Part shown: positions 1,948-56,697 of the stretch, piece by piece
Position numbering within the stretch: position 1 is the stretch's first letter
Layout of the letters: each line of letters opens with the position of its first letter
Sequence record: PZ513998.1
Source of the DNA: a phage
Reading direction: 5' to 3' (one strand)
Length of the DNA stretch: 56,697 nucleotides
Notes under the pieces: generated by a model
The model's database searches: none
Seen by the model: the letters and a program-made list of their open reading frames with translations, nothing else
What the model was told of the DNA's origin: nothing
Position numbers and translations under genes: made by a program

Positions 1948-4014
1948 ATGGCTAAATACAAAAATCTCTTTGAGATCGCGGTCAAGATGTCGGATAACTT
2001 ACGACCCCCGGAAAGGTTGACCGTTTCTAATGCAGCATCTCAATATCGATATGTAAATTCTCCCGGGTCGTATGTAGGCCCGTGGTTGAATACAACAACG
2101 CCGTATATGGTCGAACCAATGGACGTATTAACTTCGCGCAATCACAGCAAGATGGCGTTTGTAGGCCCGGCACAGTCAGGTAAAACCGACGCGATTATCA
2201 TTAATGGCGTGTCATACTCAATCAAAGTCTCACCGATGGATACAATGGTATTCTGTCCGACAATGGCAGCCGCCCGAGACTTTTCTATGCGACGTATTGA
2301 TCGTCTTCACCGACACAGCCCGCTAATCGGCGAGCAATTGTTGAAAGGTAGAGACACCGACAATAAATTCGATAAACAATACATTACAGGTATGATGTTA
2401 ACTATCACATACCCTACCGTGACCGAATTGGCCGGACGACCGGTTCCAAGAATATTGATGACCGACTTTGACCGTATGGACGACGATATCGGCGGTGATG
2501 GTAATCCATTTGACTTGGCAACACAGCGTACAACAACCTTTGGTTCGTTTGCTATGACTATGGCCGAATCGTCCCCGTCGAGAGAGATTCTTGACCCGCA
2601 CTGGATAGCTAAGTCACCGCATGAGGCTCCGCCGTGTACCGGTATTATTGCGCTTTACAACCGTGGGGATAGACGACGTTGGCAATGGCCGTGTCCTCAC
2701 TGTGACGAATATTTCGAGGGTAAATTCGAGCATCTAACGTGGGACAACGGAAAACAGCTATCTAACCGAGAGAAAGCAGAAACCGTACAAATGGTATGCC
2801 CGGAATGTGGTTGTTTGATCCACCCCGACGAACGCTTTGAAATGAATTTATTCGGAGTGTGGGTTCCGGAGGGTTGTAAAGTTGATAAGAGCGGGAGACT
2901 TACGGGCAAAGCCCCTCATACCGACTTCATTTCTTACTGGCTCCGCGGTACGGCAGCCGCCTTTACGACATGGCAAAAACTGGTAAACATCTACCTCGAT
3001 GCCCTTGACGAATATCAACGGACGTACTCAGAAGAAGCCTTGAAGAAATTCTGGAATAACAACATGGGTGAGCCGTATCAGCCTAAGTCGTTAGAATCAG
3101 TCCGCGCACCGGAAGCACTGAAAAGCCGGTCATCAGATTACCCGCTAGGCATGGTTCCGAATGACGTTCGATTCCTCGTAGCAACGATAGACGTTCAATT
3201 GAATAGCTTCGTAGTACAGGTGTTCGGTATTTCCCCGGGTTCACCGTATGACACTCATGTTATAGACCGGTTCTTCATCAACAAGTCGGAGCGTAAGGAC
3301 GAAGACGGCGACGCAATGATCTTACAGCCGGCGACATACGAAGAAGACTGGAAACTTATCGAAAAACAGGTAATAGATAAAGAGTATCCGTTGTCAGACG
3401 GTAGCGGTAGAATGATGTCAATTAAGATGACCGGTTGTGACTCCGGGGGTAAATCTGGCGTAACCGGCATGGCATACGCGTTCTATCGATATTTGAAGAC
3501 AAAGAATAAACATGCTCGCTTCATCTTATTGAAAGGTGGCACACGAGTAACAGACCCGAGAACCCGTATTAGCTATCCGGACTCTAACCGGAAAAACGAT
3601 AAGAATGCAGCTAGAGGAGAAATCCCGGTATTATTCTTAAACTCGAACTTGTTGAAAGACGCATTAAACGGACGACTAGATTGTATTGAGCCTCACAAGG
3701 GCTATTATAATATGACTAGGGAATTACCGGACGAATTTTTCTCGGAGCTATGCGCCGAAACGAGAACCGCGAAAGGTTGGGAGAATTTAGCGCAAGCCCG
3801 AAACGAAGCATGGGACTTAAGCTACTACTGTTTGGGCCTTTGTACGTCTCCGGAGTTATTACGAGTAGAGTCGATAAATTGGGACAACCCCCCAACGTGG
3901 GCGGAGGAATGGGATAATAATACGATGGTCAGGGAACCCGAGGAAGAAAAACCATTCGCCTTTCAACCTCGACCGATGTTAGACTTTAGCCGTTTAGGTG
4001 AACTATTAGGATAG
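1948..4014 (+). CDS. terminase large subunit (GpA family)
   Basis: 688 aa; Walker A-like FVGPAQSGKTDA; Cys pairs CPHCDEYF...CPECGC typical of GpA zinc ribbon; adjacent to Nu1-like, gpW-like and portal genes; first 8 nt ATGGCTAA repeat 4592-4599. Confidence 0.8.
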   Translation: MAKYKNLFEIAVKMSDNLRPPERLTVSNAASQYRYVNSPGSYVGPWLNTTTPYMVEPMDVLTSRNHSKMAFVGPAQSGKTDAIIINGVSYSIKVSPMDTMVFCPTMAAARDFSMRRIDRLHRHSPLIGEQLLKGRDTDNKFDKQYITGMMLTITYPTVTELAGRPVPRILMTDFDRMDDDIGGDGNPFDLATQRTTTFGSFAMTMAESSPSREILDPHWIAKSPHEAPPCTGIIALYNRGDRRRWQWPCPHCDEYFEGKFEHLTWDNGKQLSNREKAETVQMVCPECGCLIHPDERFEMNLFGVWVPEGCKVDKSGRLTGKAPHTDFISYWLRGTAAAFTTWQKLVNIYLDALDEYQRTYSEEALKKFWNNNMGEPYQPKSLESVRAPEALKSRSSDYPLGMVPNDVRFLVATIDVQLNSFVVQVFGISPGSPYDTHVIDRFFINKSERKDEDGDAMILQPATYEEDWKLIEKQVIDKEYPLSDGSGRMMSIKMTGCDSGGKSGVTGMAYAFYRYLKTKNKHARFILLKGGTRVTDPRTRISYPDSNRKNDKNAARGEIPVLFLNSNLLKDALNGRLDCIEPHKGYYNMTRELPDEFFSELCAETRTAKGWENLAQARNEAWDLSYYCLGLCTSPELLRVESINWDNPPTWAEEWDNNTMVREPEEEKPFAFQPRPMLDFSRLGELLG

Positions 4015-4599
4015 ATGGCAAAGGCACCGGTAACAACAAGACGTCGTAGCAATCAGCTAGACCGTGAATCCGAGTCGATGATCTTCGACGGGGTTAACAT
4101 TACTCAGATCGCAAAGATATTTAACATGGAGCGTAGAGACGTTACGCCCAAGATCCGAGAAGTTCCTCCTTGCGGGGAACGAGGCGGGTATCCGATTTAC
4201 AAATTAAATGAAGTGGCGCCATACCTAGTAAAGCCCCTGTATGATGTCGAAACCTACATTAAGCGAATGCACCCCAACGAGCTTCCTAAAATGCTCTCTA
4301 AAGAGTTCTGGAACGGAATGAAAGCTAAGCAGGACTACGAGTTGAGAGAGGGTGAGCTATGGCCTACCGACCAAGTAGAAGCGCTAATGTCGGAGTCTTT
4401 TAAACACTTACGCATGTCATTACTCTTAGTAACGGACTCACTGGAACGTGAATCCACCCTCACCGATCATCAAAGAACCCGCATCACGGAAATGATAGAC
4501 GGCGCGCTAAATGAGATGGCGCAAACACTCGTTGAGGCATTCGGAGACCGGGCTAAGACGGAAGTCAAAGAGAGTACCGTAGGTGGCAAGAATGGCTAA
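4015..4599 (+). CDS. putative terminase small subunit (Nu1-like HTH protein)
   Basis: 194 aa; N-terminal HTH-like segment GVNITQIAKIFNMERRDVTPKI followed by GERGGYPIYKL, similar in layout to lambda Nu1; adjacent to large terminase. Confidence 0.45.
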   Translation: MAKAPVTTRRRSNQLDRESESMIFDGVNITQIAKIFNMERRDVTPKIREVPPCGERGGYPIYKLNEVAPYLVKPLYDVETYIKRMHPNELPKMLSKEFWNGMKAKQDYELREGELWPTDQVEALMSESFKHLRMSLLLVTDSLERESTLTDHQRTRITEMIDGALNEMAQTLVEAFGDRAKTEVKESTVGGKNG

Positions 4600-6123
4600 A
4601 TGCGAAAGAAATTCTCGAAACGTACGGTTGGGAAGACTAAAGTTAACCTACTTGAAGAAATCAGGAAAGGTAGAAAACTTGTTGAAAGACAACGGGAAGA
4701 CTTACACGAGTATCAAGTTGAAGCCCGACAACTGGCGCATGACATTCCATTCTGCGGATTATTCCTCGAAATGGGTATAGGCAAAACCGTAATAACCGGA
4801 ACGCTGATCGCCGACTTACTTGATAACTTTGAAGTAGATAGAGTTCTCATTATAGGCCCTCGTAGGGTGGCTAAAGTAACATGGCCGGACGAATTCATGG
4901 AGTGGGGTCATCTATGTGGGTATAAAGTAACGCCGGCAGTCGGAACACCCAAGGAAAGACTAGCGGTACTAAATAGCAATAGTCCTATCGTATCCATAAA
5001 CCGAGAGAATGTAAGCTGGCTAGTAAACTATTACAAAGGCAAGTGGCCGTTCGATATGGTGGTCATAGACGAGTCGAGTTCCTTTAAGTCTCACAAATCT
5101 AAGCGGTTTAAGGACTTAACTAAAGTCAGACCGAGGATAAAACGACTAATCGAGTTGACGGCCACCCCAAATGGCGAGGGATTTACTTCGTTCTTTTCTC
5201 AAATATATTTACTTGATTACGGTAAACGGTTCGGCCGTAGCTTCAATAAGTTTAGGGATAAATACTTCGAGTACAACCCGTATAACCACAGCATCAAGCC
5301 GAGAGAAGATACGGAGATGCGTATCTTAGAAAAGATAAAAGATATATGCGTAGTTATGCGAGCAGAAGACTATCTCGATCGAGTACCGTATGAGCCAAAG
5401 GTGATCCCGGTAAAACTCAATAAGAAGATCACCAAGGAGTATTTCGACTTCCAAAAGAATTTAGTCATGATGATACCCGAAGCGGAAAACGTCATAGTGG
5501 AAGCGCAATCGGCAGCGATACTCGCATTGAAACTGCTACAAATGTGCTCCGGCGTTATTTACAACACGTACTATGACGGGATAGATGAGAACGAGGAGCC
5601 GATAAGGAAGACCGACATCTATGATATCCACGAGGAGAAACTAGACGCGCTCGAAGTGTTTCTGGAAGAAGCAAAGGAAGCCGGAAAGAATGTTTTCCTT
5701 GGGTATCACTTTCGGTCATCACGAGAAAGAATATTAGCCCGATTCCCGGATATCGTCGAGATGGATAAAGACGGAAATAACATAAAACAATGGAACGCGG
5801 GGCGAATAAAAGTTTACATGGCACACCCTCAAAGTGCGGGGCACGGCTTGAATTTACAGCGGGGCGGACATACAATTCTTTTCTATGACATTCCGTATTC
5901 GTTCGAGAACTATGACCAATTTATCGGCCGGCTCGATAGGCAAGGTCAAAAGCACCGAGTAACAGTACACCACTTAGTTGCGGTCGGAACAAATGAAGAT
6001 GGCCGAACAGTCCAACTAGCCGACCGCCACGTTTATAACAATCTGAGACGTAAGGAAGAAAACCAAGATTGGGCCTTGAAGACCTTACGTGATCTCAGAA
6101 AAGCGATGAAAAAGGAAGTTTAG
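4600..6123 (+). CDS. SNF2-family helicase
   Basis: 507 aa; Walker A LEMGIGKTVITG, DExx box VVIDESSSF, C-terminal helicase motif QFIGRLDRQGQ; first 41 nt identical to 6371-6411. Confidence 0.8.
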   Translation: MRKKFSKRTVGKTKVNLLEEIRKGRKLVERQREDLHEYQVEARQLAHDIPFCGLFLEMGIGKTVITGTLIADLLDNFEVDRVLIIGPRRVAKVTWPDEFMEWGHLCGYKVTPAVGTPKERLAVLNSNSPIVSINRENVSWLVNYYKGKWPFDMVVIDESSSFKSHKSKRFKDLTKVRPRIKRLIELTATPNGEGFTSFFSQIYLLDYGKRFGRSFNKFRDKYFEYNPYNHSIKPREDTEMRILEKIKDICVVMRAEDYLDRVPYEPKVIPVKLNKKITKEYFDFQKNLVMMIPEAENVIVEAQSAAILALKLLQMCSGVIYNTYYDGIDENEEPIRKTDIYDIHEEKLDALEVFLEEAKEAGKNVFLGYHFRSSRERILARFPDIVEMDKDGNNIKQWNAGRIKVYMAHPQSAGHGLNLQRGGHTILFYDIPYSFENYDQFIGRLDRQGQKHRVTVHHLVAVGTNEDGRTVQLADRHVYNNLRRKEENQDWALKTLRDLRKAMKKEV

Positions 6124-6411
6124 ATGACTGTTAGAGAGAGCAAAGTCGAATCGGATATCCGAAAATACGCTTTGGCCCGAGGCTGGTGGGTTTCTAAATT
6201 TACTAGCCCCGGTAAACGAGGCGTACCAGACCGGATATTCATTAAAAACAGTTTTGTAGTTTTTATCGAAATCAAACGCCCCGGAGAGAAGCCGTCGAAG
6301 CAACAAGAATTACGCATGGCCGAGATGAAGCGCTACGGGGCTTTAGTATATTGGGTGGATAATTTAAACGATGCGAAAGAAATTCTCGAAACGTACGGTT
6401 GGGAAGACTAA
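6124..6411 (+). CDS. VRR-NUC domain nuclease
   Basis: 95 aa; PD-(D/E)xK-like core GVPDRIFIKNSFVVFIEIKRPGEKPSKQQ typical of VRR-NUC; classic partner of phage SNF2 helicases. Confidence 0.65.
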   Translation: MTVRESKVESDIRKYALARGWWVSKFTSPGKRGVPDRIFIKNSFVVFIEIKRPGEKPSKQQELRMAEMKRYGALVYWVDNLNDAKEILETYGWED

Positions 6412-8445
6412 GTGGAATCGAAAAGAACGTTAATTTTTGACTATGAAACATATAGCGAACTAGACATAAAGAAAGTAGGCGGTCACAAGTATGCACAGCA
6501 CCCGTCTACTGAAATTCTAATGGTAGCGTGGAAGTTTACTGACTCGGACGAAATCGGTTTTTGGGACAACACAATGCCCGAAGAAGATTTAGACGAGTTA
6601 AAGGGATATTTGCGCGACGATAACATCATAAAACGGGCATTCAACGCGCAGTTTGAGCGGTTGATCACTAAACACGTCCTAGGTATCGACACACCGTATG
6701 ACGTCTGGCGTTGTACGATGGTGGCTGCGTACCACCGAGGTTTTACCGGCGGGTTAGACATGGTTGGTAAGGCTCTAGGTTTTAAAGGGGATAAAGCAAA
6801 AGACGCAGCAGGTAAACGCCTAATTCAGAAATTTTGTAAACCAAGAAAGCCAACTAAACTCGACAAAAGTACAAGACACGATGCGGAATCACACCCGGAA
6901 GAATGGGAAGCATTCGGAGCCTATTGCCGACAAGACGTGATAGCCGAAGAAAATATCGACCGCCGTCTGAGTGACATCAAGTATGACATGATCGAATTTG
7001 AGTGGGAAGTTTACGCGTTAGACCAGAAAATTAATGACCGCGGAATAAATATCGATAACGACTTCATCGAAGCAGCAATAAAGATGGCCGAGACACGCAA
7101 GCCACAGATTATCGATGAAATGCGAGAACTTACAGGGCTAGCCAATCCCGGGTCTCAGAAACAACTATTAGCGTGGCTACAACAAGAGGGATACCCGTTC
7201 AACGACCTATTAGCTGACACCGTGAAAAAAGTCATAAACGAGTATCCGGACAATGGGATCACAGAAAAAGCGTGTCGAGTTCTTAAACTTCGTCGTAAAT
7301 CTAACAAAACCTCTCTAAAGAAATACAACAAAATGTTAGATATTGAAAACGACGACGGTAGGGTACGCGGAACAATTCAATGCTACGGGGGTTCTCGAAC
7401 CGGACGATTCGCCGGGCGGGGCTTACAAACTCACAACTTCGTAAGAACACCGAAGATACTTGAAGACGTCGAAGCTACGGAAATCGCTAAAAAGCTAGTT
7501 CTCGACCAAGACATGTGGGCTTTAAACGTTTTTGCTGGCGAACCCATGGATATGTTGCCGGGGCTACTACGATCCGCACTAATCCCAACGGTAGGTCGTC
7601 GCTTCGTTGTAGCGGACTTGTCATCAATTGAATCGGTAGTAATAGGTTGGCTTACCGGCTGTAAGTGGTTCCTAGATACCTTGCGGGCTAAAAAAGACTT
7701 ATATCGCGCATTCGCCTCAGCATGGCTAAAAATTCCTTACGAAGACACCCTCCCATTCCGAGGAAAGGCAAAACCGGCCACACTAGGTTGCGGATATCGA
7801 CTAGGCGGTGGCGAACTTATTGACGGTAAGAAAACCGGACTTTGGGGTTACGGTGAAAACATGGGAGTCATGCTAACACAAGAGGAGGCTCACGCTTCGG
7901 TAGACGCATTCCGAGAGTTGTGCCCTGAGATTGTTGACGGTTGGTATAAACTTGAAGATTGCGTAAAAACCACCATTAAGACGCACAAGACAACCCGATG
8001 GAGATCGTTAGTATTCGGGTTTAAAAAACCGTTCTTATGGATTAAGTTGCCATCGGGGCGGAAACTTTATTACTACCGCCCACGCTTAGTAACAAACACC
8101 TACAAGAACCGCAGAGGTGAGACGTACACTCGTCAAGAAATAATGTACGAGGGTAAAAAAGATCAAGGCGGTTGGGGTGTTCAAACCACGCACGGCGGGA
8201 AATTGATTGAGAATATCGTTCAAGCCATAGCAAGAGATGTCCTAGTAAACGGCATGTTTAATGCGGAAGAAATAGGTTTCGATATCGTATTCCACGTTCA
8301 CGATGAAATCATAACGGAAGTCGACGAAGATGACCTGTTAGGGCTAGACGACCTCATTGATTGTATGGCAGCACCGATATCGTGGGCGCCGGGACTACCA
8401 TTAGGAGCAGCAGGGTGGGAGGGGTATTTTTACCGTAAAGATTAA
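6412..8445 (+). CDS. DNA polymerase, family A-like with 3'-5' exonuclease domain
   Basis: 677 aa, GTG start; exo motif FDYETYSE, motif A-like VADLSSIESVV, motif B-like RGKAKPATLGCGYRLG, motif C HVHDEI. Confidence 0.75.
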   Translation: MESKRTLIFDYETYSELDIKKVGGHKYAQHPSTEILMVAWKFTDSDEIGFWDNTMPEEDLDELKGYLRDDNIIKRAFNAQFERLITKHVLGIDTPYDVWRCTMVAAYHRGFTGGLDMVGKALGFKGDKAKDAAGKRLIQKFCKPRKPTKLDKSTRHDAESHPEEWEAFGAYCRQDVIAEENIDRRLSDIKYDMIEFEWEVYALDQKINDRGINIDNDFIEAAIKMAETRKPQIIDEMRELTGLANPGSQKQLLAWLQQEGYPFNDLLADTVKKVINEYPDNGITEKACRVLKLRRKSNKTSLKKYNKMLDIENDDGRVRGTIQCYGGSRTGRFAGRGLQTHNFVRTPKILEDVEATEIAKKLVLDQDMWALNVFAGEPMDMLPGLLRSALIPTVGRRFVVADLSSIESVVIGWLTGCKWFLDTLRAKKDLYRAFASAWLKIPYEDTLPFRGKAKPATLGCGYRLGGGELIDGKKTGLWGYGENMGVMLTQEEAHASVDAFRELCPEIVDGWYKLEDCVKTTIKTHKTTRWRSLVFGFKKPFLWIKLPSGRKLYYYRPRLVTNTYKNRRGETYTRQEIMYEGKKDQGGWGVQTTHGGKLIENIVQAIARDVLVNGMFNAEEIGFDIVFHVHDEIITEVDEDDLLGLDDLIDCMAAPISWAPGLPLGAAGWEGYFYRKD

Positions 8446-9051
8446 ATGGCAAAACTTAAACCAGTAAAACGTATTAAACATGAAGGTAAAACAGTAGCGG
8501 TAATCTATGAAGACGGCCACGTCCGAATTGATAATGTTCGCTTGTCATACCCACACTTAGCAACACCACAAGAGGGTGATGACGGCAGTAAAAAGTTCGG
8601 TGCTACATTCTTATTAGACAAGGACATTCATTCTGAAACAGCCGAAGTCTTAAAAGATTTAGCAGCTAAAACAGCGAAAAACGCGAAAGTGAAAGTCCCG
8701 TCATCGAAGTATTTCATCAAAGATGGTGACGAAGAATTTTCGGACAAACCTGAATGTGAAAATATGTTTGTTATCTCCGCCCGGGAAAAGAAACGTCCTG
8801 TTTGTCGAGATGCTGACAAAGAAGAAATCGACGTAGACGATATTGAAGAAATCCTATACGGCGGTTGCTATGTTAGTGCCTTGATTGGTCTTTGGGTTCA
8901 AGATAACAAATACGGAAAACGAGTTAACGCTAACCTCCGTTCAATCAAATTCATCAAAGACGGCGAGCCGTTCGGTGCTGAAAGAATCGATGATTCCGAA
9001 GCGTGGGACGACGAAGACGAATGGGGTGAAGGCGAAGAAGACGACATCTAA
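8446..9051 (+). CDS. DUF2815-like phage ssDNA-binding protein
   Basis: 201 aa; acidic C-terminal tail DDSEAWDDEDEWGEGEEDDI as in SSBs; conserved position between DUF2800-like nuclease and DNA polymerase. Confidence 0.5.
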   Translation: MAKLKPVKRIKHEGKTVAVIYEDGHVRIDNVRLSYPHLATPQEGDDGSKKFGATFLLDKDIHSETAEVLKDLAAKTAKNAKVKVPSSKYFIKDGDEEFSDKPECENMFVISAREKKRPVCRDADKEEIDVDDIEEILYGGCYVSALIGLWVQDNKYGKRVNANLRSIKFIKDGEPFGAERIDDSEAWDDEDEWGEGEEDDI

Positions 9052-10380
9052 ATGGATAAATCATTTTTACATCGACTTATGTTGGCTTGCGAAAATGACG
9101 GACATTCGATATTCGCACCGTCATACTCCGCAACTTGGATGAATTGCCCCGGGTCGCTAGTACCTAGCATCTTGGAGGAAGATTCAGCCGGGTTCGAGGC
9201 AGCCGAGGGAACCATCGCCCACGCTATTGCTGAGGAGTGGTTGAGAACCGGGAACAGGCCCGACCACTTATTAAATACAACTCAGGTACACGAGGAGAAC
9301 GGAAATCGATTCGAGATCCCGGTCGACCACGAAATGTTCGAGTATCTTCAAGAATACATTAAGATGTGCGGTGAGAACAAAGGCGATCAGTTTGTAGAAA
9401 CTAAAGTGTGGTTCACGGACTTAATGCCGATCGCCAACCCGGACGCAGACGAGCTAAACGGGGAAGATGAAAGCCCGATTAAGTTTATCCGACAAGGCGG
9501 TACGTGTGACCACGCTGTATGCCAACCCGGTAAATTAATCATAACCGATTTGAAATACGGGCAATTCATTCACGTTTCTACTGACGACAATACTCAATTG
9601 AAATTGTACGCATACGGATTCTTTAGAGAGTTCGACGAAAAGTATCACTTCGAAGATATAGAGATCCGTATCTGTCAACCGAGAAAATATAATTTTGGCC
9701 GGTTTAAGATGACCCGTTCGGAGATTATCGCTTTCGGGGAGCGAGTGAAAAAAGCCACCAAAGAAGCGTGGAGTATGGACGCTCTACGTTACCCAAGTGA
9801 AAAGGCTTGCGAGTGGTGTAAGATATCCTACAAATGCCCGGCGAACTTCGCAAGAATACTAGATCTCAAGAACGGCAGATACAGCCCTAACCCATTCGGA
9901 TACTCGGCGGACGACATGGCAAGTATAAAAGATCTCCTCAGAGAAGAACTAAATTTACAATTAAAAGAGACTTCCCTATTGACATGGGAGGAAATTTCGT
10001 TAATATACCCACATCGCAAGCCGATAGAGAAGTGGTTCAAAGATGTTGAGAAAGCAGCATCAAAACGGATCATGGAGGGTAAGCCGATAAAAGGCTTGAA
10101 GATGGTAGCGAAAAGAGGGACTCGGCAGTTTGTTGAGGAGTCCACGGCCACGGAAGAACTAGAATTTGTAGGGCTAGACGAAAGTCAAATAAACCCCACA
10201 AAGATGATATCCCCGAAACAGGCCGAAACACTATTGAAAAAGCTAGGATATGATAAAGATGTTGTTAAAAGCATCTTGTCTGACCTGACTTTTACAAAAC
10301 CGGGCGAACCGACGTTAGTTACAGAGGACGACCCACGAAAAGACCTAAACGAGAAGTATCAAGAAGTTTGGGACGATTAA
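9052..10380 (+). CDS. DUF2800-like PD-(D/E)xK (Cas4-like) nuclease
   Basis: 442 aa; N-terminal MDKSFLHRLMLACENDGHSIFAPSYSATWMNCPGS; Cys cluster CEWCKISYKCP; conserved partner of DUF2815 and PolA. Confidence 0.55.
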   Translation: MDKSFLHRLMLACENDGHSIFAPSYSATWMNCPGSLVPSILEEDSAGFEAAEGTIAHAIAEEWLRTGNRPDHLLNTTQVHEENGNRFEIPVDHEMFEYLQEYIKMCGENKGDQFVETKVWFTDLMPIANPDADELNGEDESPIKFIRQGGTCDHAVCQPGKLIITDLKYGQFIHVSTDDNTQLKLYAYGFFREFDEKYHFEDIEIRICQPRKYNFGRFKMTRSEIIAFGERVKKATKEAWSMDALRYPSEKACEWCKISYKCPANFARILDLKNGRYSPNPFGYSADDMASIKDLLREELNLQLKETSLLTWEEISLIYPHRKPIEKWFKDVEKAASKRIMEGKPIKGLKMVAKRGTRQFVEESTATEELEFVGLDESQINPTKMISPKQAETLLKKLGYDKDVVKSILSDLTFTKPGEPTLVTEDDPRKDLNEKYQEVWDD

Positions 10381-10863
10381 ATGTCACAACAAAACGGCGT
10401 TTTAGAAATGTTATTAGCTAGCTTCGCAACTTTAAACGAGAATATCGAGAAGTTAAACGGAAACATCGAAGCGTTGGTAGCTAACGGCGTAGCATCGGGT
10501 AAAACTGAAACTAATGCCGACACTAAAGCTGAAAGCAAATCTGAAACTAAAGCAGAAAGCAAGTCAGAGACTAAGACAGAAGAAAAGAAAGCGGATAAAA
10601 AATCTAATTCTAAAAAATCTGAAAAACAAGCTGACAAGCCGGCGGATAAACCTAAATACACTAAATCAGACATCACCGAAGCGCTTCGCAAAGTTCGAGC
10701 TGATATCGACAAAGAAGAAGCGGTTCGCATCATCAATGAAGTCGGCGGTGTTGAGAAGATGGGCCAGATCCCAGAAGATAAGTATGAAGCTGTTTTCCAA
10801 GCGTGTGAAGCATCTCTTAACGGTGAATCAGATGACGACTCAGGCGATGACGACGATATGTAA
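10381..10863 (+). CDS. hypothetical acidic protein with KSETK repeats
   Basis: 160 aa; repeats ESKSETKAESKSETKTEEKK and Asp-rich C-terminus SDDDSGDDDDM; function unknown. Confidence 0.35.
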   Translation: MSQQNGVLEMLLASFATLNENIEKLNGNIEALVANGVASGKTETNADTKAESKSETKAESKSETKTEEKKADKKSNSKKSEKQADKPADKPKYTKSDITEALRKVRADIDKEEAVRIINEVGGVEKMGQIPEDKYEAVFQACEASLNGESDDDSGDDDDM

Positions 10864-11199
10864 TTGACTGGATTGTCTCGTTTCGACACGGCCTATAATA
10901 CTCGTTATGAAATCCCTGTCAACACCTTTTTGACGAAATTTTTATATCGGGTATCCACCTCAATGTTAGGCCACCCGAAAAGTTTCATTGCCGGTAAGAT
11001 GTTTATCGCCTTTTAGGTGATACTTTTATCCTCTCAACTGATATCGCTCTCAGGTGGCCGTAGATTTAAGTCCGTTCACGTATTGACTTTCTGTTTTAAG
11101 TGGAATATCCCGCGCGTTGACTTATCTATAATTCTTGCGGTATTATCTGCGTCTACCCTCGGGTTAGATTTATCACAACTAAGGAGCAAGTATTTATGA

Positions 11200-14160: not shown

Positions 14161-14294
14161 ATGTTGTACAAAAATCACCCAACACACATGATCGAATTAC
14201 CTTTATATAGCTTATATATATATTTTTCTATTTTTCCTTTCCTATCTATTTTTTCTTTCTTCTGGAATTTCTATTTTATTATCTATTACTGTGT

Positions 14295-48300: not shown

Positions 48301-49710
48301 GCCAGAAAAGCAGCACAACGTAAGAGCCTCGCAGGACGCCTACAAATCATCGATGAAGAATACGCTAAGATGTATGAAAAAGCGAAAGCCATCGGTGGCA
48401 AAGAGGGCGACGAGATGAAAAAGCAAATCGACGACCTAGTAGCTCACGCGAAACGGTCAGAGACGATGCTATTCAATGCTCAACAAAGTTCTAGCGGTGG
48501 CCTAGATAAGCGTAAGCGCAAGATCGATGCTATCACGCAAGCGCTTGAAAGAATGAACGCAGAAGTTAACAGACGTCAAACTAAGGCTGATCCGGAGTCG
48601 TCTCTCGATGACCGAATTAACGCGGAGATCGAGAAGTCAAACGTTAAGATTAATGCGTTGAAAAAAGAGGCCCTAGCCATAGGCGGACAAGAGGGCAAAC
48701 AACTGGCCGACAACTTGGAGAAGCTACGAGAGAAAACAAACCTCTATCTCTCAGAGAAAATGCAAGTCGAGGAGGTTAAGCGTCTTCAAGATGCAGTTAA
48801 TGCGCAATTAGAGATCAAAAAGAACAAGATTGAAGAAATCAACGCCAAAAGAAAAGCGGGCTTGATTGATGACCAGCAACAAGCTGACGCGATCAAGGCC
48901 ATAAATGAGGGGTCAATAGGGGCGATATCTTCATCACTAGACGCTCTTAGCAACCAAGTGGCGCAGTCATCTACATTATTCAGTGAAGAAGAACTAGTCC
49001 GGATAACAACTGGTATTAGTAAAATACGTTCCGAACTACAAGGCGTTGAGGGTGAATTCACTAAACTAGACAGCCAAGTTGTAAACGGGGTTCTAGGAGG
49101 TTTCGACACGGCGATCAACTCGGCTTATGATGGGATCGTTAAAGTCGCAACTGGGGCAGAAAGTATCGGAGACGCATTCGCAAACCTAGGCGTCGCAGTG
49201 GCTCAGTTTTTCGCAGATTTCCTAAAACAAATAGCTATGGCAATAATGCAACAAATGGTACTCAATGCGATAGCCGGCATGGGTGGAGGGGTAGGAGCAG
49301 CAGCAGTATCGATGGGCGGTGTGGTAGCCCCGGTAAAACACTCCGGCGGTGCGGTCGGGAGCGGAGGTAGGTCTAGAACCGTGGCTCCCTCTACATTTGC
49401 ATCGGCTCCGAAGTTCCATAACGGGGGAATGCCCGGAATTAAGCCTAACGAAATACCGACAATATTAGAGCGAGGGGAAGAAGTCTTATCCAAGAACGAC
49501 CCTAGAAATATCGCAAATGGCGGACAGGCAGCAAGACCGGGAGGACAAGCCGGCCCGACAAACATCAAACTAGTAGCAGTTGATGACCGTAGCAAGATAC
49601 CGGAAGCCATGGCAACGGCCGAGGGCGAGCAGGTTATGATTGTTAACTTAAACCGAAAATCACCCGCGATCCGTAGCATATTAAATCGCGGAAGCTCTAA
49701 GAGGACATAA
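45379..49710 (+). CDS. tail tape measure protein
   Basis: 1443 aa, GTG start; long Ala/Gln/Lys/Glu-rich coiled-coil regions, internal hydrophobic segment, Gly-rich C-terminal region. Confidence 0.8.
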   Translation: MANRDVELRIRARDDSQKTLKQVSKTLDDLTSAQTRNADAAKRGDASVRELEQQYKKLENAGQQLLRLNSLTEMFTRQKEALNKVNTQLAEAKKKHSDLSSAMNGASNVTKKMQSDLDKAERAVKRLTDQQDRSTKSVQKTAKELSRFGISSNDIATAQKRIRDEVTRTNQALARQEKIIGDVPTRAQKAHAQLLASLKLQANQLVASTKGYQTLGRVISSLPSMSGQMADLMAPAEAARRKIGTLEKQINDLATASKRWRKDASGMNSDLKALEASAKSAIGMSRMIETFQRQTEAVRKARAEYRSAQADAKNLANQVRQAGTANAEMGAKLQASNARLREASQALRNETASARQTQSALRSAGIDTRNLGAEQQRLRGLVQNSVGGINNLRASLERLSGSARSSGKAFSFFRDEGRTTLSFMQRMRGDVLSLASAYIGVQGAVDMAKGAVEAFKVQQQAMVKIGTVVGSGPEERAKEWEYMLGLSDALGIKIETLSKAYTKFAVSAKEVGLSQKEAKFIFENIAKTARVYHLSDDDMNGVFLALEQMLSKGQVYAEELRQQLGERLPGAVAMFAKSLGKTIPEFTKMMENGEVDARSVINFANEQGKAIEAQLAEAQKGVDAIEARASNAMFNLKLAISKSGFIEAYTSMLEKLTEFITSDRGKEAAEKLGTAFSAIADGVIWAVDNVDLLIDALKVLASIKVIKILVSTGRNLISVFKEVKGVISTVLPLGKRLVGGIGSLIASTGLLTGALKLLLRAIPFVGVALLAWDMVSILYENNEAFRKFCDETIERAKYLGKMLIDYAKVPGTAIYDLLVSFVRPITTLFGDSIKQVGKWLADLLGMLPVVGDSLSAWVMGITDDLTKADREIFESSNKLSKDIVDNWDKMTGDVSYVHEKAMETVADNAGKTAGAVIGSMELVSKAAEQLAKKQSGFEFQKDPGTGIGQRDLDMRALKKEIEKRQNAEEKADLAARKAAQRKSLAGRLQIIDEEYAKMYEKAKAIGGKEGDEMKKQIDDLVAHAKRSETMLFNAQQSSSGGLDKRKRKIDAITQALERMNAEVNRRQTKADPESSLDDRINAEIEKSNVKINALKKEALAIGGQEGKQLADNLEKLREKTNLYLSEKMQVEEVKRLQDAVNAQLEIKKNKIEEINAKRKAGLIDDQQQADAIKAINEGSIGAISSSLDALSNQVAQSSTLFSEEELVRITTGISKIRSELQGVEGEFTKLDSQVVNGVLGGFDTAINSAYDGIVKVATGAESIGDAFANLGVAVAQFFADFLKQIAMAIMQQMVLNAIAGMGGGVGAAAVSMGGVVAPVKHSGGAVGSGGRSRTVAPSTFASAPKFHNGGMPGIKPNEIPTILERGEEVLSKNDPRNIANGGQAARPGGQAGPTNIKLVAVDDRSKIPEAMATAEGEQVMIVNLNRKSPAIRSILNRGSSKRT

Positions 49711-49729
49711 ATGGTACAGGCCGAAGTAG
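49711..49729 (+). repeat. 19-bp exact repeat ATGGTACAGGCCGAAGTAG (second copy at 49947-49965)
   Basis: start of frame-1 ORF 49711-49869 is identical to the last 19 nt of frame-1 ORF 49870-49965. Confidence 0.9.
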
Positions 49730-49965
49730 ACATTGTTATCAAGCGAGTTAATAATCAAATAGCAACGGAAGCAATATTAATGCAACAATGTATCGCCTCC
49801 GCCGTATGGGGGAAAGAGGGCGCTAAGATTTTCAACAAGACGATAAAGGGGCTACAAGGTGGCAAATAGATGCGGAGAAAATCAGGGAGGGGGTTAGCCT
49901 CCTCCTGTCCCACGGTCATACGTTCGCACGACACTACCCGATCGGCATGGTACAGGCCGAAGTAG

Positions 49966-50418
49966 ATGTCATTATCCGCATTCGAACCAACGAAAAAAAG
50001 CGTAACTATCAATGATTCTATTTCCATCGAAGTTCGAGGCTTATCACTAAACGATATCTCTCGATTAATCCAGTTACACGCCCAAGATTTAGACGGCGTA
50101 TTCGACTTATATTCACAAGGAGTTGGGGCCGGGAAAGAATTAGATAGTTTAGTATTCGCTAACTACTTGCTCACCCTGATATCCTCCGCACCGGGGCTAA
50201 TTAGTAGCATTATCGCGGTTTCTGCGGACGAACCTACCATGGCCGATAAAGCCTCCCTCCTACCGATAACGGCGCAATACGATTTAATGATGGCCGTATT
50301 TGAGTTAACTTTCTCGGACATTGCTACGCTAAAAAAGATCATGGCGAACGTAATGGAGAAAGTGGGAGAAGCGAACGGGAAAACAGTTCCGGCCAAGAAA
50401 GCCAAGAAAAAGGGTTAA
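49966..50418 (+). CDS. putative tail assembly chaperone (gpG-position)
   Basis: 150-aa acidic protein with Lys-rich C-terminus next to the tape-measure region; K-rich run AAGAAAAAGGG near its 3' end. Confidence 0.4.
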   Translation: MSLSAFEPTKKSVTINDSISIEVRGLSLNDISRLIQLHAQDLDGVFDLYSQGVGAGKELDSLVFANYLLTLISSAPGLISSIIAVSADEPTMADKASLLPITAQYDLMMAVFELTFSDIATLKKIMANVMEKVGEANGKTVPAKKAKKKG

Positions 50419-51606
50419 ATGGCACAACCATGTACAAGCAGCAACGACCAGAATTACGTCGTAGGGCGTGGTCGACTATTCTTCGACAAGTTCGTCGACG
50501 GTTGTAACAACTCCGAGCATGGCGAAATGTATTTCGGTAATACCCCGGAGTTATCACTATCTTCTGACACAGAAACGTTAGACCATTATTCGTCTGATTA
50601 TGGTATGCGTGAAAAAGACCTAACCGTGATGCTAGAGCATTCTCGTTCTGGTTCATTCACAACCGACCATATCTCCGCGGACAACCTAGCGTTGTTCTTC
50701 CTAGGGGACAAAACGCATGTTACTCAGACTCAGGTGACAGGCAACAAAGAAGTATTCGAAAACGTGGCATTAGGTCGTCACTACCAACTCGGCACAACGG
50801 ATATCCTACCGATGGGCGTTCGTAACATCGAGAATCTGTTAGTTTACGTGGCGGACGGTGATACAACCATCAACCTAGGCGATGGCGATGTGTCAACTAT
50901 CGACGGTGTAACTAAAGTAAATTTTGCCGGCCAGATCGACTACGACCTAGAGTTAGGACGTATCTATATCGAACCTACCGCTACTGAAATTAAAAACGGT
51001 CAGCAGTTAGTAGTCCAGTATGACATCGAGGCGCAGGCTCGCGAAATCATCATTGCCCGTAACCGCATGATCTACGGCTCACTGCGATTCTTGTCAGCTA
51101 ACCCGGTAGGTAGCGCGAAAGATTTCTACTGGCCCAAAGTCATGTTACAACCTGACGGAGACTATGCACTTAAAGGTGACGACTGGCAACAAATTGGGTT
51201 TACCTTTAGCGTTCTTCGCAAAAACCGCAAAGTGGAGCAGGTTTACATCGAGTCAGCGATGGCAAGAGCATCTACGCCCCCAAAGCCTGATCCGGAGCCG
51301 GAATACCGTCTAACTCTTAGCGTTACTCCGACCTCCGGTACTGAGGGTGATACTTTAGTAGCTAAGGTAAAAGCTACGAAAGACGGCGCTCCGAGAAAAA
51401 CAAAAGTGGTCTTTGCCTTTAGCTCCGACGAGGTGGAACTGGCCGATAGTCACCCTGACGGTGTAGAGACAGACGGGGTTACGGGAGAGGCCACTGTGAA
51501 TCTTACGGTAGGCCCCGTGTCCGGTTCCGCGACAAAAGTTACGATAACAGTAACCGATAGCGACGGAGGAAGTGCGACGGAGGAAGTTACCGTCAACCCA
51601 AAGTAA
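50419..51606 (+). CDS. major tail protein with C-terminal Ig-like domain
   Basis: 395 aa; C-terminal ~100 aa Thr/Val-rich beta-strand pattern (TLSVTPTSGTEGDTLVAKVKATKDG ... TKVTITVTDSDGGSATEEVTVNPK) typical of Ig-like decoration on major tail proteins. Confidence 0.5.
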   Translation: MAQPCTSSNDQNYVVGRGRLFFDKFVDGCNNSEHGEMYFGNTPELSLSSDTETLDHYSSDYGMREKDLTVMLEHSRSGSFTTDHISADNLALFFLGDKTHVTQTQVTGNKEVFENVALGRHYQLGTTDILPMGVRNIENLLVYVADGDTTINLGDGDVSTIDGVTKVNFAGQIDYDLELGRIYIEPTATEIKNGQQLVVQYDIEAQAREIIIARNRMIYGSLRFLSANPVGSAKDFYWPKVMLQPDGDYALKGDDWQQIGFTFSVLRKNRKVEQVYIESAMARASTPPKPDPEPEYRLTLSVTPTSGTEGDTLVAKVKATKDGAPRKTKVVFAFSSDEVELADSHPDGVETDGVTGEATVNLTVGPVSGSATKVTITVTDSDGGSATEEVTVNPK

Positions 51607-52119
51607 ATGGCAAGTAAAAAATTAGAAATACTAAAAGCACTAACGTCTCTACTAGAAACAGTATCATCGGACGGTAACGAAAATATACGGCCGTATAGTT
51701 TGGCCGGAAGTGTCTATCGCGGTAGAACCGTTTTTGGAGATAACGACCCCGTACCTTTGGTGAGTATACTTGAAGCGAAAGGGGCTAATTACGCTGATTA
51801 CGCTGATGACTTCAAGATCATAAACAAAACCGGCTGGAACCTATTAATACAAGGGTGGGTCGACCCGATAGACCCTAAACAAGAAACCGACCCGGTATAC
51901 GAGCTAGTACAAGACGTAATATGTGCGTTACAAAAGATTAATGCGGTACGGCCGGAGACCGGTAAACCGCTATACCCGGAGTATTATCGACTAGGTGGGC
52001 GGATTTTTGAATTAACTTTAGGTGACGAGGTTGTCAGACCAAGCGAAGTTGAGGTATCATCTAAGGCGTTTTTCTACCTCCCGATAGTAATCGGCATCAC
52101 TAATCAAGCAAGAGGGTAA
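51607..52119 (+). CDS. putative tail terminator / head-tail joining protein
   Basis: 170-aa ORF; assignment by position between capsid and major tail genes. Confidence 0.3.
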   Translation: MASKKLEILKALTSLLETVSSDGNENIRPYSLAGSVYRGRTVFGDNDPVPLVSILEAKGANYADYADDFKIINKTGWNLLIQGWVDPIDPKQETDPVYELVQDVICALQKINAVRPETGKPLYPEYYRLGGRIFELTLGDEVVRPSEVEVSSKAFFYLPIVIGITNQARG

Positions 52120-53439: not shown

Positions 53440-54507
53440 ATGGCTGGACAGTATTCAACCGTACAACTTTTACCGGTATTGCGTAAAATCGAATCGCTAC
53501 CGTCGTTTTTCTTAGGGTTCTTCCCGAACACGATCAACTTTGATACCGACGAAATCGCGATCGATAAAGTAAGCGACAACTACAAACGCGTAGCACCGTT
53601 CGTCGCTCCTAACGTACAAGGCGTGGTGATCAAAGAGAAAGGTTTCCACACCGTAGCGTTTAAACCGGCGTACCTGAAACCTAAACATGCTATCGACCCA
53701 TCGATGGTGTTTCCTCGTCGCCCGGGCGAAAACCTACTAACTGGTTCCTTGACGCCAGACCAAAAATTCAAGATGGCCGTCGCAGAAACGCTACGCAAAC
53801 ATAAGTCAATGATCGAGAATACGTTCGAGGTTATGGCAGCGTCAGCGGTGATCTATGGCTACGTTGATGTTGAAGGGCCGGACTATCCGAAAACCCGTGT
53901 AGACTTCCGACGTGACCCGTCGCTGACCATCACAACCGACTGGACGGCTCCCGGCATCACATCGGAGCAGACCTTTAAAGACTTACGCTTAGGCAAGCAA
54001 CTGGTTAATGACAAGTCTGCTAGCGGTACGGTTGTTCGTGACTACATCTTCGGCCAAGACGCTTGGGATTTATTCGTCAAGATCAACAAAGACGAATTGT
54101 TCGGCGATCACGGCTTGATGGATACTCGTTTCAAAGGTTCTGAAACATTGATTACGCGTATCTCAGATGGCCTTGAGGGCATTGAATACATGGGCCGTAT
54201 CGCGGGTGTAAATGGCGCGGGTGCAATGGATATCTACGTCAACACGCAGAAATTCGTTAACCAAGACGGCAAAGAAGAATACCTAGTACCACAAGGCGGT
54301 ATCGTAGGTGTATCTCGTGCTATCGAGGGCTACCGTTGCTTCGGTGCAATCCACGACAAGAAAGCGGGCTTCCGTTCATTAGAAATGTTCCCTAAAATGT
54401 GGGAAGAAGAAGACCCAAGTGTTGATTATGTGATGACGCAATCGGCTCCGTTAATGGTTCCACGCGATCCTAACACTTCATTCTTACTGATGGTATCCAC
54501 CAAGTAA
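53440..54507 (+). CDS. major capsid protein (lambda gpE family)
   Basis: 355 aa; size and overall pattern typical of E-family capsid proteins; flanked by D-like decoration protein and S49 protease. Confidence 0.8.
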   Translation: MAGQYSTVQLLPVLRKIESLPSFFLGFFPNTINFDTDEIAIDKVSDNYKRVAPFVAPNVQGVVIKEKGFHTVAFKPAYLKPKHAIDPSMVFPRRPGENLLTGSLTPDQKFKMAVAETLRKHKSMIENTFEVMAASAVIYGYVDVEGPDYPKTRVDFRRDPSLTITTDWTAPGITSEQTFKDLRLGKQLVNDKSASGTVVRDYIFGQDAWDLFVKINKDELFGDHGLMDTRFKGSETLITRISDGLEGIEYMGRIAGVNGAGAMDIYVNTQKFVNQDGKEEYLVPQGGIVGVSRAIEGYRCFGAIHDKKAGFRSLEMFPKMWEEEDPSVDYVMTQSAPLMVPRDPNTSFLLMVSTK

Positions 54508-54903
54508 ATGTTAGCAGGTTCTCGCGACCTTAACGCATGGGAACCAACTCAGATTTTCGCCGGCGAGTCACCGATCCATACGGACAACGGCGTGGCGTCA
54601 AGCGATATCGATATGTACCAAGTGGTATATCGTAAAGAAGACGGCACTATCGCAGCATTTGACGACACGGTTTATCCGGGTACGGGTTCCGGCGGTGACG
54701 AGGGTGAGGGGACTGCAACGGCGATATTACCAGTCGGGATCTCGGCACAAGCAACGAAAAGCGGTCAGACAGTACAGTTCTACACCGGCGGTACGTTTAA
54801 TATCGATGCGATCACATGGCCGAAAGCCATTGATGACCTAGTGAAAGCCAAATCGCTTTTCGAGTTAGGTCGCTCAACAATCATTATCAAAAAACTGTAT
54901 TAA
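54508..54903 (+). CDS. head decoration protein (lambda gpD-like)
   Basis: 131 aa; LNAWEP ... ILPVGISAQATKSGQTVQFYTGGTFNIDAITWPKA parallels gpD LVAWDG ... [31 protein letters not shown]. Confidence 0.6.
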   Translation: MLAGSRDLNAWEPTQIFAGESPIHTDNGVASSDIDMYQVVYRKEDGTIAAFDDTVYPGTGSGGDEGEGTATAILPVGISAQATKSGQTVQFYTGGTFNIDAITWPKAIDDLVKAKSLFELGRSTIIIKKLY

Positions 54904-56181
54904 ATGACGCAAGGCACTTATCAAGCTGCTGCCGTACAAGCGGTACAAGCTATTAATCTACGCCCGGCGTTTCTGGACGAACGTTCAGTCGGTTCTATGG
55001 GGAGTAACTTACAGTTGCTAGCTAACGTAGAGGCCGACATGACTGACGAAACTTGGTCAACAATGCTAAACAACGTGTGTATGACGTATGGGGTGTCTAA
55101 CAGCGCACCAACTAACAAACCATACGGATTCTCTAACGGAACCGCTTTCATTCCGGTACACGGCTCTCTAATTAACCGCTTCGGCGGTTCTTGGGGATTC
55201 GTTACAGGATATAGCTATATTCGTAGAGCACACGCAATGGCCTTGAATGATCCGGACGTCGAGAGAATCGTCTATGACGTTAATTCGGGTGGAGGCGAGG
55301 CAGCCGGTTGTATGGAACTATCGGACGAGATTTTCAGTCGTCGCGGTGAAAAACCTACACTGGCCGTCATCAACTCAAGTTGCTATTCTGCTGCTTACGC
55401 GATCGCAAGTGCGTGTGACGCGATAAGTATCACGCCCTCGGGTGGCGCGGGTTCAATTGGGGCGTTGATTATTCACGCTGATATGTCTAAAATGTTGTCT
55501 GACGTAGGAATTAAAGTATCTGTGATACGCGCCGGCGACAGAAAGGCAGAAACCAACCCTTTCGAGGAACTTAGCGATCAAGCGAGAGCAGAGCTACAAT
55601 CAGGCGTCAACGCTTGTAGAAAAACGTTTGTAGCAACCGTAGCAAGAAATCGCGGTTTGTCGGAAAAGCTAGTATTCGACACCGAAGCGAAAACATACGA
55701 CGCGAATGATGCTAAAGACTTAGGTCTAGTTGACCGCGTTGAATCGCCAGAAATGGCATTACACAACTTCATTAACGGAACAGAGAGCGAAACTGATATG
55801 GCCGTAAAAAACACAAACGCGGAGCAACCGACAATCAATGCGTCCGAAGAACAAGCTAAAGGTGCGAAAGCAGAACAAGCGCGTATCAAGGGCATTCTTG
55901 GTTGTGATGAAGCAAAAGGGCGCGAATCGTTAGCACAACACATCGCGTTCAACACCTCAATGAGCGAAGAAGATGCTAAGGCAATGCTTAACGCTTCTCC
56001 GGTTGAGAAAGCGGAAGAACCAAAGCAAGAAGAAAAGCCGAACGCTTTTAAGAAAGCAATGGACGAAGGCGAACAGCCGGGCATCAAAGCCGAGCCACAG
56101 GACACGGATAAGCCCTTAGCAACGGACGAGAATAACTCGTTATTAGACGACCTTTCAGGTCTTGGCTATTTCGGTAACTAA
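54904..56181 (+). CDS. S49-family head maturation protease / scaffold (lambda gpC-like)
   Basis: 425 aa; SppA/S49-like core (VNSGGGEAAGCMELSDEI, INSSCYSAAYAIASACD, GSIGAL); C-terminal RIKGILGCDEAKGRE matches gpC RIMGILNCEEAHGRE; ATGA at 54904-54907 repeats the last 4 nt of the window. Confidence 0.8.
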   Translation: MTQGTYQAAAVQAVQAINLRPAFLDERSVGSMGSNLQLLANVEADMTDETWSTMLNNVCMTYGVSNSAPTNKPYGFSNGTAFIPVHGSLINRFGGSWGFVTGYSYIRRAHAMALNDPDVERIVYDVNSGGGEAAGCMELSDEIFSRRGEKPTLAVINSSCYSAAYAIASACDAISITPSGGAGSIGALIIHADMSKMLSDVGIKVSVIRAGDRKAETNPFEELSDQARAELQSGVNACRKTFVATVARNRGLSEKLVFDTEAKTYDANDAKDLGLVDRVESPEMALHNFINGTESETDMAVKNTNAEQPTINASEEQAKGAKAEQARIKGILGCDEAKGRESLAQHIAFNTSMSEEDAKAMLNASPVEKAEEPKQEEKPNAFKKAMDEGEQPGIKAEPQDTDKPLATDENNSLLDDLSGLGYFGN

Positions 56182-56697
56182 AACCTTTCATACGAACAGT
56201 TTAGCCGAGACTACACGAAGACTAACTATTCTTCCGCGAGAGCCTCAATGGGGGAAACATGGAAATTCATGCAGTCTCGCAAAAAGATCATTGCTGATGC
56301 TTTCGCTACAAACATTTATGCGTTGTGGTTAGAGGAGATGATAAACAAAAACGAAATCCCGTTGCCACGAGGAAAAACGAGCGACTGGTTTTACGAACCG
56401 TTAGTGAAAGACTGTTTAATTCGTTGCGACTGGATAGGTGCAGCCCGCGGTCAAATCGACGAGAAGAAAGAGACCGAAGCAGCTATCATGAGAATTAACA
56501 GTGGTCTGAGCACTCGTGAGAAAGAAATCGCTCGACTCGGCGAAGACTGGAGAGAGATTTTTAGGCAGTTAGAACGAGAAAAACGAATAAAAGATAAATA
56601 CGGGCTTGTTTTCTCCGGAGATGTGAGTAATATATCCGCTAACGAGAAAACAAACTCGGAAGATGACGAAGAAACTAACAGTGGGGATTCGGAATGA
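56182..56697 (+). CDS. portal protein, lambda gpB family, C-terminal fragment lacking a start codon
   Basis: open in frame 1 directly after the protease stop; first ATG only at 56248; translation NLSYEQFSRDYTKTNYSSARAS...CDWIGAARGQIDEKKETEAAIMRINSGLSTREKE is colinear with gpB residues following ...IAAGL (GVSYEQLSRNY...CDWIGSGRMAIDGLKEVQEAVMLIEAGLSTYEKE); continues exactly where ORF 547-1671 stops. Confidence 0.75.
   Translation, partial: NLSYEQFSRDYTKTNYSSARASMGETWKFMQSRKKIIADAFATNIYALWLEEMINKNEIPLPRGKTSDWFYEPLVKDCLIRCDWIGAARGQIDEKKETEAAIMRINSGLSTREKEIARLGEDWREIFRQLEREKRIKDKYGLVFSGDVSNISANEKTNSEDDEETNSGDSE

Follow-up and report, generated by a model that had tools for sequence, protein, structure and literature searches.

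Gene content and order of the window

The window, that is the whole stretch of 56,697 nucleotides analysed here, is covered from base 1 to base 56697 by 85 open reading frames on the + strand, placed head-to-tail with no gaps. At 84 of 84 junctions a stop codon is followed at once by the next frame (each frame is called a tile below), leaving zero intergenic bases. The earlier note had the feature begin at 1948, but the tiling starts at the first base. The GC skew stays positive throughout the window.

Gene families were assigned using Pfam and PHROGs (Table 1). Packaging genes and the replication module, which ends with a gene for a hypothetical protein, lie towards the left end. The right-hand part runs through lysis genes, tail fibre, J-like, tail assembly, tape measure, pre-tape-measure chaperone, major tail, terminator, neck, capsid E, decoration D and S49 protease. 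This placement of the families on 85 + strand tiles confirms the earlier description of a gene order that mirrors conserved phage order with every gene on the + strand. The head, tail and replication modules are indeed reversed, but not all modules are, as 28 tiles in three blocks retain their native order. The VRR-NUC call made previously agrees with the GenBank name of the endonuclease, which falls in phrog_93, although the tile has no VRR-NUC match in Pfam at E<=0.001. The Enc34 ssDNA-binding family, PF10991, is presumably the 'DUF2815' of the earlier note. The tiles of 33 and 34 aa are likely to be false gene calls over a minus-strand promoter-like and terminator-like site.

Table 1. Features of the window and their positions in the record of Escherichia phage E21 (NC_052983.1)
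Feature	Window position	Strand	E21 record position (strand)	Basis or remark
Displaced tile 1, 59 aa	1-180	+	19875-20054 (-)	Exact match; no PHROG match
Displaced tile 2, 121 aa	181-546	+	20048-20413 (-)	Exact match; no PHROG match
Portal N-terminal part, 374 codons	547-1668	+	1122..1 (-)	blastn 1122/1122 identical
Portal N-terminal tile, lambda-family	547-1671	+		PF05136 profile positions 2-320 of 354
Appended TAA	1669-1671	+		Not in parent record; stop codon on 3'-truncated portal fragment
Packaging tiles	1672-4599	+	1128-4059 (-)	Transcription order reversed
gpW-like adaptor	1672-1947	+		PF02831
Large terminase, GpA ATPase and nuclease	1948-4014	+		Pfam
Small terminase, DUF1441	4015-4599	+		Pfam
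Replication module	4600-10863	+	4062-10438 (-)	Order reversed
SNF2 helicase	4600-6123	+		
Endonuclease	6124-6411	+		phrog_93; GenBank name VRR-NUC
DNA_pol_A (PolA)	6412-8445	+		
Enc34 ssDNA-binding protein	8446-9051	+		PF10991
DUF2800	9052-10380	+		
Six tiles including primase	10864-14502	+	10459-14391 (+)	Native order; Pfam Prim-Pol, DUF5906
Twelve early-gene tiles including Mom-like gene	14503-19218	+	14465-19498 (-)	Reversed
Two tiny tiles, 33 and 34 aa	19219-19425	+	19547-19761 (+)	
Six tiles	19426-21255	+	20406-22351 (-)	Reversed
Twenty tiles including RdgC, Dam-like and nucleoside deoxyribosyltransferase genes	21256-30147	+	22366-31515 (+)	Native order
Lysis, tail and head modules	30148-56181	+	31575-58024 (-)	Exact reverse of transcription
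J-like	38647-42426	+		Phage-tail_3
Tape measure	45379-49710	+		TMP_3
Chaperone	49966-50418	+		Pre_tape_measure
Major tail protein	50419-51606	+		
Capsid E	53440-54507	+		Phage_cap_E
Lambda decoration protein D	54508-54903	+		
S49 protease	54904-56181	+		Peptidase_S49
Portal C-terminal part, 171 codons and stop	56182-56697	+	58536..58021 (-)	Exact match

Source record and base accounting

By string matching, 84 tiles are identical over their full length to stretches of NC_052983.1, which is the same record as MN604053.1: the circular, 58,536 bp genome of Escherichia phage E21 (Lavrentievavirus, Casjensviridae). An IMG/VR copy of E21, IMGVR_UViG_2974716705_000001, has the same length. The 85th tile is exact except for its appended TAA, and these three are the only bases in the window without an E21 origin. 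The parent record that the earlier note had proposed to look for is thus identified. The tiles are 100% identical to E21 and cover 56,417 of its 58,536 bases, which places the sequence content in the species Lavrentievavirus E21. A further 2,119 record bases, which are intergenic, are absent from the window, and 277 bases at overlaps are present twice. The sum closes exactly, with 56,140 bases used once, 2x277 and 3 added giving 56,697.

Reverse complements of the record minus strand account for 57 tiles and direct copies of the plus strand for 28. From tile 3 to tile 85 the record coordinates are strictly ascending, while tiles 1 and 2 (record 19875-20413) are out of place. In a list of ascending coordinates with each tile in its sense orientation, modules of the minus strand come out backwards and those of the plus strand stay in native order. 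Exact string matching supports the cause proposed in the earlier note, namely that minus-strand genes were taken in order of rising coordinate and written out one by one in sense. That explanation had omitted the removal of intergenic DNA, the duplication of overlaps, the stop codon on the portal fragment and the two misordered tiles. In the E21 record, the spacing between neighbouring CDS ranges from -41 to +327 and is zero for just 2 pairs out of 84, and chance is thus excluded as the source of 84 abutments out of 84 in the window.

All 64 deposited E21 CDS are represented: 48 are identical, and the other 16 share the stop and begin at a different start. The remaining 21 tiles are calls beyond the deposited CDS, as short as 90 nt. 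The deposited annotation was considered as the origin of the tiles and rejected on these differences in number (85 versus 64), starts and extra calls. A public gene-call set identical to the tiles was also sought; this gave relatives with similarly dense calls (ORFs of 29-46 aa), and E21 was not one of the four places listed.

The divided portal gene and the displaced front tiles

The portal gene is cut at the linearisation point of the record, position 1/58536, and its fragments lie about 54.5 kb apart in the window. The C-terminal part, matching PF05136 profile positions 322-353, begins with AAC, has no start codon and runs off the record end. Natively, the N-terminal part continues across the record origin as AAC..., where the window has TAA. 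When joined, the two fragments (547-1668 and 56182-56697) make one 545-aa ORF identical to the native origin-spanning ORF. In Proteus phage ASh-2020a the portal fragments are contiguous and the gene is intact. The TAA on one fragment and the lack of a start codon on the other are not accounted for by coordinate sorting.

The native slot of the two front tiles is between window positions 19425 and 19426, and their placement is the sole break in the ascending order. Their homologues in ASh-2020a occupy the native position. Tile 2 shares 8 nt with its native neighbour, and these bases are duplicated in the window. Plain coordinate sorting gives no account of the front placement. Lexicographic order, 5'-end coordinate, strand runs, rotation and a reverse-complemented source were considered as sorting keys, by reasoning rather than computation, and none fits.

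Junctions and regulatory sequence

Only one of the 84 junction 24-mers is present in circular E21; the mid-tile 24-mers are present in 85 of 85 cases. The junction 24-mer between the capsid E stop and the D start, the one junction searched for in IMG/VR, had 0 matches in its 2.9 million viral contigs, and an equally long within-gene control 24-mer matched the IMG/VR copy of E21. The native 20 nt of upstream sequence is kept by one of 84 tiles and lost for the other 83. This exact test was used in place of a Shine-Dalgarno comparison, in which a loose and weakly discriminating motif was found at 42 of 83 tiles in the record and 21 of 83 in the window, against a background of 12%. The nine best promoter-like and terminator-like sites were checked, and six are wholly within DNA that is missing from the window.

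As a DNA molecule the window could not work, because the intergenic DNA with the best promoter-like and terminator-like sites has been removed, because only one gene in 84 retains its native upstream 20 nt, because the portal gene is in two fragments at opposite ends, and because the G/GT-type frameshift continuation is no longer 3' of the chaperone gene.

Comparison with related phages

A natural genome with the order of the window was sought by comparing 50 kb of it with 50,697 phage records by megablast, and none was collinear. The related records listed match the window in 23-30 pieces; in one listing every record matches in 23-24, or roughly one piece for each tile. The gene content is the same in ASh-2020a (NC_052980.1) and in other Lavrentievavirus, with tile-by-tile nucleotide identity of about 91-100%. 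On its + strand ASh-2020a carries the canonical order: DUF2800-type exonuclease, SSB, PolA, endonuclease, SNF2, TerS, TerL, Ad1/W, the intact portal, protease, D and capsid, further on major tail, chaperone and tape measure, and further on again J-like. This module order is the opposite of that in the window. Relatives with the same + strand order, which the earlier note had named as evidence against its reading, were not seen among these piecewise matches.

For plus-derived tiles, of which 22 have a match in ASh-2020a, where they lie on the minus strand, window index and ASh-2020a coordinate give a Spearman correlation of -1.0. For minus-derived tiles it is 0.48, a value that is confounded because the E21 and ASh-2020a records are mutually rotated; the order is strictly descending within each arc.

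Origin of the mirror-image order

The window is almost certainly a computational construct and not a piece of a genome, made by concatenating the CDS of phage E21 in the order of their record coordinates. In all likelihood a dense de novo gene caller, probably a PHANOTATE-like or Prodigal-like tool, was run on the linearised E21 record, giving 85 calls where the deposit has 64 CDS. Its settings would have allowed a smallest call of 90 nt and partial genes at the record ends. Every called CDS was then written out in sense, and the pieces were arranged by left record coordinate and joined without a spacer. The E21 deposit has its replication, packaging, head, tail and lysis genes in minus-strand orientation; an ascending sort lists them from last-transcribed to first-transcribed, and reverse-complementing each gene moves all of them to the + strand. 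Sorting and per-gene reverse-complementing together generate mirror-image synteny without strand inversion. Genes from the + strand of the record are unaffected and retain their native order. The behaviour of the script used is probably behind the TAA and the misplacement of the two front tiles.

One alternative is a 'refactored' phage genome, designed or synthesised on purpose so that overlapping genes are pulled apart and every gene is on the same strand. Examples of refactored genomes are T7.1 and decompressed phiX174. The co-orientation of all genes and the separation of overlaps by duplication of the common bases are as in such designs. However, a design meant to function would retain ribosome-binding sites, promoters, terminators and a packaging site or provide them anew, would not cut the portal at the record origin or reverse the operon order, and would exclude tiny calls over minus-strand promoter-like and terminator-like sites. 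No designed parts have been added, as all bases except the TAA are from the E21 record, and this origin is very improbable.

Equally improbable is that the two front tiles record a real translocation in the E21 variant used, the construct being otherwise as described. No other tile is out of order, but these two, like the rest, begin and end exactly with a CDS, adjoin the next tile without a spacer and carry the duplicated overlap of tile 2. The E21 record, its IMG/VR copy and ASh-2020a all keep the pair at the native site. There is hardly any chance that the window represents a refactored E21 genome that physically exists, or an E21 variant in which the two-gene block at 19875-20413 was really translocated.

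Least probable, and in practice already refuted, is a natural phage genome whose packaging, head, tail and replication genes were reordered singly to run backwards on the + strand: the families are all real and, apart from the portal, intact, and the positive GC skew would be expected if all coding strands faced one way, but the tiles are 100% identical to a record of canonical native order, are joined without intergenic bases and with overlap bases duplicated, have lost native upstream sequence in all cases but one, include a portal cut exactly at an arbitrary database origin and given a foreign TAA, and form, at the junction searched, a sequence found in no public contig.

Consequences for use of the window

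The mirror-image gene order is a listing artefact and is therefore uninformative on phage biology; it is not a real feature and has no biological significance. The earlier note was right in recognising the artefact from the sequence alone. The window, like any sequence built in this way, has no intergenic DNA, false adjacency and artificial co-orientation of its genes. For this reason findings from it on order, strand, spacing, promoters, terminators, ribosome-binding sites, overlaps or composition skew are unreliable, and they should be re-evaluated on MN604053.1.

Comparison with known systems

The lambda morphogenetic order is Nu1, A, W, B, C, D, E ... V, G/T, H, M, L, K, I, J. Lambda and the window share the families of the GpA terminase, gpW, lambda-family portal, S49 protease, D, capsid E, tape measure and J-like protein. 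E21 and ASh-2020a follow the lambda order, whereas the window is its exact reverse on the same strand. The reversal described earlier at the left end is real, but the order is not terminase, gpW-like, portal as listed then; it is portal N-terminal part, gpW, TerL and TerS. This is a cleaner reversal of the lambda Nu1-A-W-B order than the previous listing.

The E21 record has intergenic DNA, genes on both strands and the canonical module order on its minus strand, and the window differs from it in all three respects, as well as in its gene set from the deposited annotation. A concatenated multi-FASTA of predicted CDS, such as the nucleotide output of a gene caller or a file of the 'cds_from_genomic' type, would normally lack the two misordered entries and the added TAA. 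In other respects the window resembles such a file, in which each CDS is given in sense from its start to its stop, the entries follow their left coordinates, and partial genes stand at the sequence ends.

Parent record of the window

The mirrored lambda gene order of the window is an artefact of its assembly from a known phage, Escherichia phage E21; the observation of the earlier note is confirmed and its interpretation supported. When the two halves of the window were searched by megablast against 50,697 phage records, the parent record sought by that note was found (MN604053.1 = NC_052983.1), matching at 99.9–100% identity on the minus strand and split into 24–30 pieces. The E21 record is circular (58,536 bp; Lavrentievavirus, Casjensviridae), and an IMG/VR copy, equal in length, is linearised at the same point (IMGVR_UViG_2974716705_000001). 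By string matching, 84 of the 85 + strand ORFs, or tiles, of the window are exact substrings of this record over their full length. The other, tile 547–1671, is record 1122..1 on the minus strand (1122/1122 identical) followed by a TAA (window 1669–1671) absent from the record. A separate deposit, 'Pseudomonas phage E21' (PV596763.1; 58,554 bp), is ~97% identical to this Proteus/Escherichia-type Lavrentievavirus; its stated host, P. aeruginosa, is unexpected for so close a relative.

Tiling and base accounting

Tiles were defined by reading in frame from base 1, a new ORF being opened directly after each stop. Nearly all of the + strand ORFs listed begin on the base next to the preceding stop, and the 85 tiles cover 1–56697 exactly, with no intergenic bases. 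All but one open with ATG, GTG or TTG; the last (56182–56697) opens with AAC. GC skew is positive along the entire window, which fits coding strands that all point the same way. The minus strand of the record supplies 57 tiles (43,959 bases) and the plus strand 28 (12,738 bases), with tiles 3–85 in strictly ascending record coordinate. Record bases present once (56,140) and twice (277), plus 3 added, sum to 56,697; the doubled bases are gene overlaps written out in both tiles. The 2,119 record bases missing from the window all lie between CDSs. Only 1 of 84 junction 24-mers is found in the circular record, where two + strand calls adjoin, against 85 of 85 mid-tile 24-mers, and 1 of 84 tiles retains its native upstream 20 nt. 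The capsid stop/D start junction 24-mer had no match in 2.9 million viral contigs.

The tile set differs from the deposited annotation. Each of the 64 deposited CDSs has a counterpart, identical for 48 and differing in its start for 16; the other 21 calls go down to exactly 90 nt. Such a set suggests dense gene calling de novo, the identity of the caller being inferred; comparably dense calls are seen in deposited relatives. The RdgC tile (22888–23976, +; 362 aa) starts 168 nt before the deposited RdgC start and is mirrored almost end to end by an antisense 362-aa ORF (22764–23852, −), presumably a shadow ORF. E21 also has DNA-modification-type genes (window 17836–18477, 26845–27585 and 29467–29931), the set being Mom-like (PF25680), Dam-like (PF05869) and nucleoside 2-deoxyribosyltransferase; the Dam-like gene is labelled PAPS reductase in RefSeq but methyltransferase in GenBank.

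The only departure from ascending order is at the front, where tiles 1–180 (59 aa, with a CxC...CxxC pattern) and 181–546 (121 aa), neither with a PHROG match, correspond to record 19875–20413. A real translocation of these is unlikely: their ends coincide with CDS boundaries, as for every other tile, and E21, its IMG/VR copy and the related Proteus phage ASh-2020a (NC_052980.1) all have them at the native site. Their front position and the appended TAA both seem to stem from the script that generated the window.

The split portal gene

The Pfam portal profile is divided, with positions 2–320 in tile 3 and 322–353 in tile 85. The 3'-truncated fragment gained the TAA, and the 5'-truncated fragment gained no start codon. 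Joined, 547–1668 and 56182–56697 form a 1,638-nt ORF of 545 aa without internal stop, identical to the native ORF spanning the record origin and near-identical to the portal of ASh-2020a, in which both parts are contiguous (28658 + 1122 = 29780). The gene is thus cut at the record origin, where a database entry was arbitrarily linearised, and the split clearly bears the mark of a computational origin. In E21 the gene is complement(join(58021..58536,1..1122)), crossing the origin. The GenBank/RefSeq 'portal protein' is the 149-aa C-terminal piece only (58021..58470) and 1..1122 has no annotation; the deposited annotation is thus incomplete.

A designed, refactored genome would need added regulatory parts, but none exist, and all bases except the TAA are native. 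A genuine genome with reordered genes is excluded by zero spacing between tiles, duplicated overlap bases, a portal cut at the record origin with a foreign stop attached, and the lack of a collinear relative among the related records listed.

Lost signals

The best sigma-70-like sites of the record minus strand (TTGACA, 16–17 nt spacer, TATATT or TATTAT) and the strongest hairpins resembling terminators form two groups. Those at record 21058–21030, 17819–17791, 17881–17852, 15138–15113, 9936–9915 and 52115–52096 lie in the deleted intergenic DNA; two of these positions, 21058 and 17819, carry further copies of the promoter-like motif, absent from the window. The remaining sites lie inside tiny + strand calls and now face opposite to the genes they would serve: near-consensus minus-strand promoter-like sites (record 10517 and 19581) and a terminator-like hairpin (record 19759–19740). 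The tiny calls themselves are probably spurious and cover regulatory DNA that belongs to the leftward early operons.

The pre-tape-measure gene ends ...AAG AAA AAG GGT TAA (window 49711–50418 region; record 51318–52021, minus strand), and its −1 frame is open from within this 3' end over the ~240-nt gap to the tape-measure start. This resembles the lambda G/GT programmed frameshift. Mini-tiles 49711–49869 and 49870–49965 are pieces of this candidate frameshift region, not separate genes. The window disrupts translational coupling, the context of the chaperone frameshift and the portal gene, and a molecule built as such would do nothing useful. Findings in the window based on order, strand, spacing or signals are unreliable.

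Gene order

Features of the window, with record positions for the tiny + strand calls
Feature	Window	Strand	Record	Remark
Lambda-family portal	547–1671	+		Pfam portal profile
gpW	1672–1947	+
GpA-type large terminase (TerL)	1948–4014	+
DUF1441 small terminase (TerS)	4015–4599	+
SNF2	4600–6123	+
Endonuclease	6124–6411	+		PHROG only; no Pfam VRR-NUC match at E<=0.001
PolA	6412–8445	+
Enc34-type SSB (PF10991)	8446–9051	+
DUF2800	9052–10380	+
Tiny call	10864–11016	+	10459–10611 (+)
Tiny call	19219–19320	+	19547–19648 (+)
Tiny call	19321–19425	+	19657–19761 (+)
J-like tail protein	38647–42426	+
Tape measure	45379–49710	+
Pre-tape-measure chaperone (G-like)	49966–50418	+
Major tail protein	50419–51606	+
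Tail terminator	51607–52119	+
Capsid E	53440–54507	+
Decoration D	54508–54903	+
S49 protease	54904–56181	+
Portal C-terminus	56182–56697	+

The protein families assigned in the earlier note stand, the endonuclease by PHROG and without a Pfam VRR-NUC match. Its left-end order of terminase, gpW and portal is corrected to portal N-part, gpW, TerL, TerS, a clean lambda reverse, and the mirrored order begins at base 1 rather than 1948.

In the E21 deposit the replication, packaging, head, tail and lysis genes are on the minus strand. Listing these by ascending coordinate opposes the direction of transcription, and writing each in sense places all on the + strand, together giving a reversed order without apparent inversion. 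Tile order and strands support this mechanism, as first proposed from the sequence. The 28 plus-strand tiles are in native order (10864–14502, 19219–19425 and 21256–30147), which distinguishes ascending-coordinate listing from wholesale reversal.

Related phages sharing the + strand order of the window would have spoken against this; the order in ASh-2020a, deposited in the orientation opposite to E21, is the opposite. Its + strand carries exonuclease (DUF2800), SSB, PolA, endonuclease and SNF2, followed by TerS, TerL, Ad1/W, an intact portal of 547 aa, protease, D and capsid, and further on by major tail, chaperone, tape measure, ..., J-like. Tile index and ASh-2020a coordinate run strictly opposite inside each arc.
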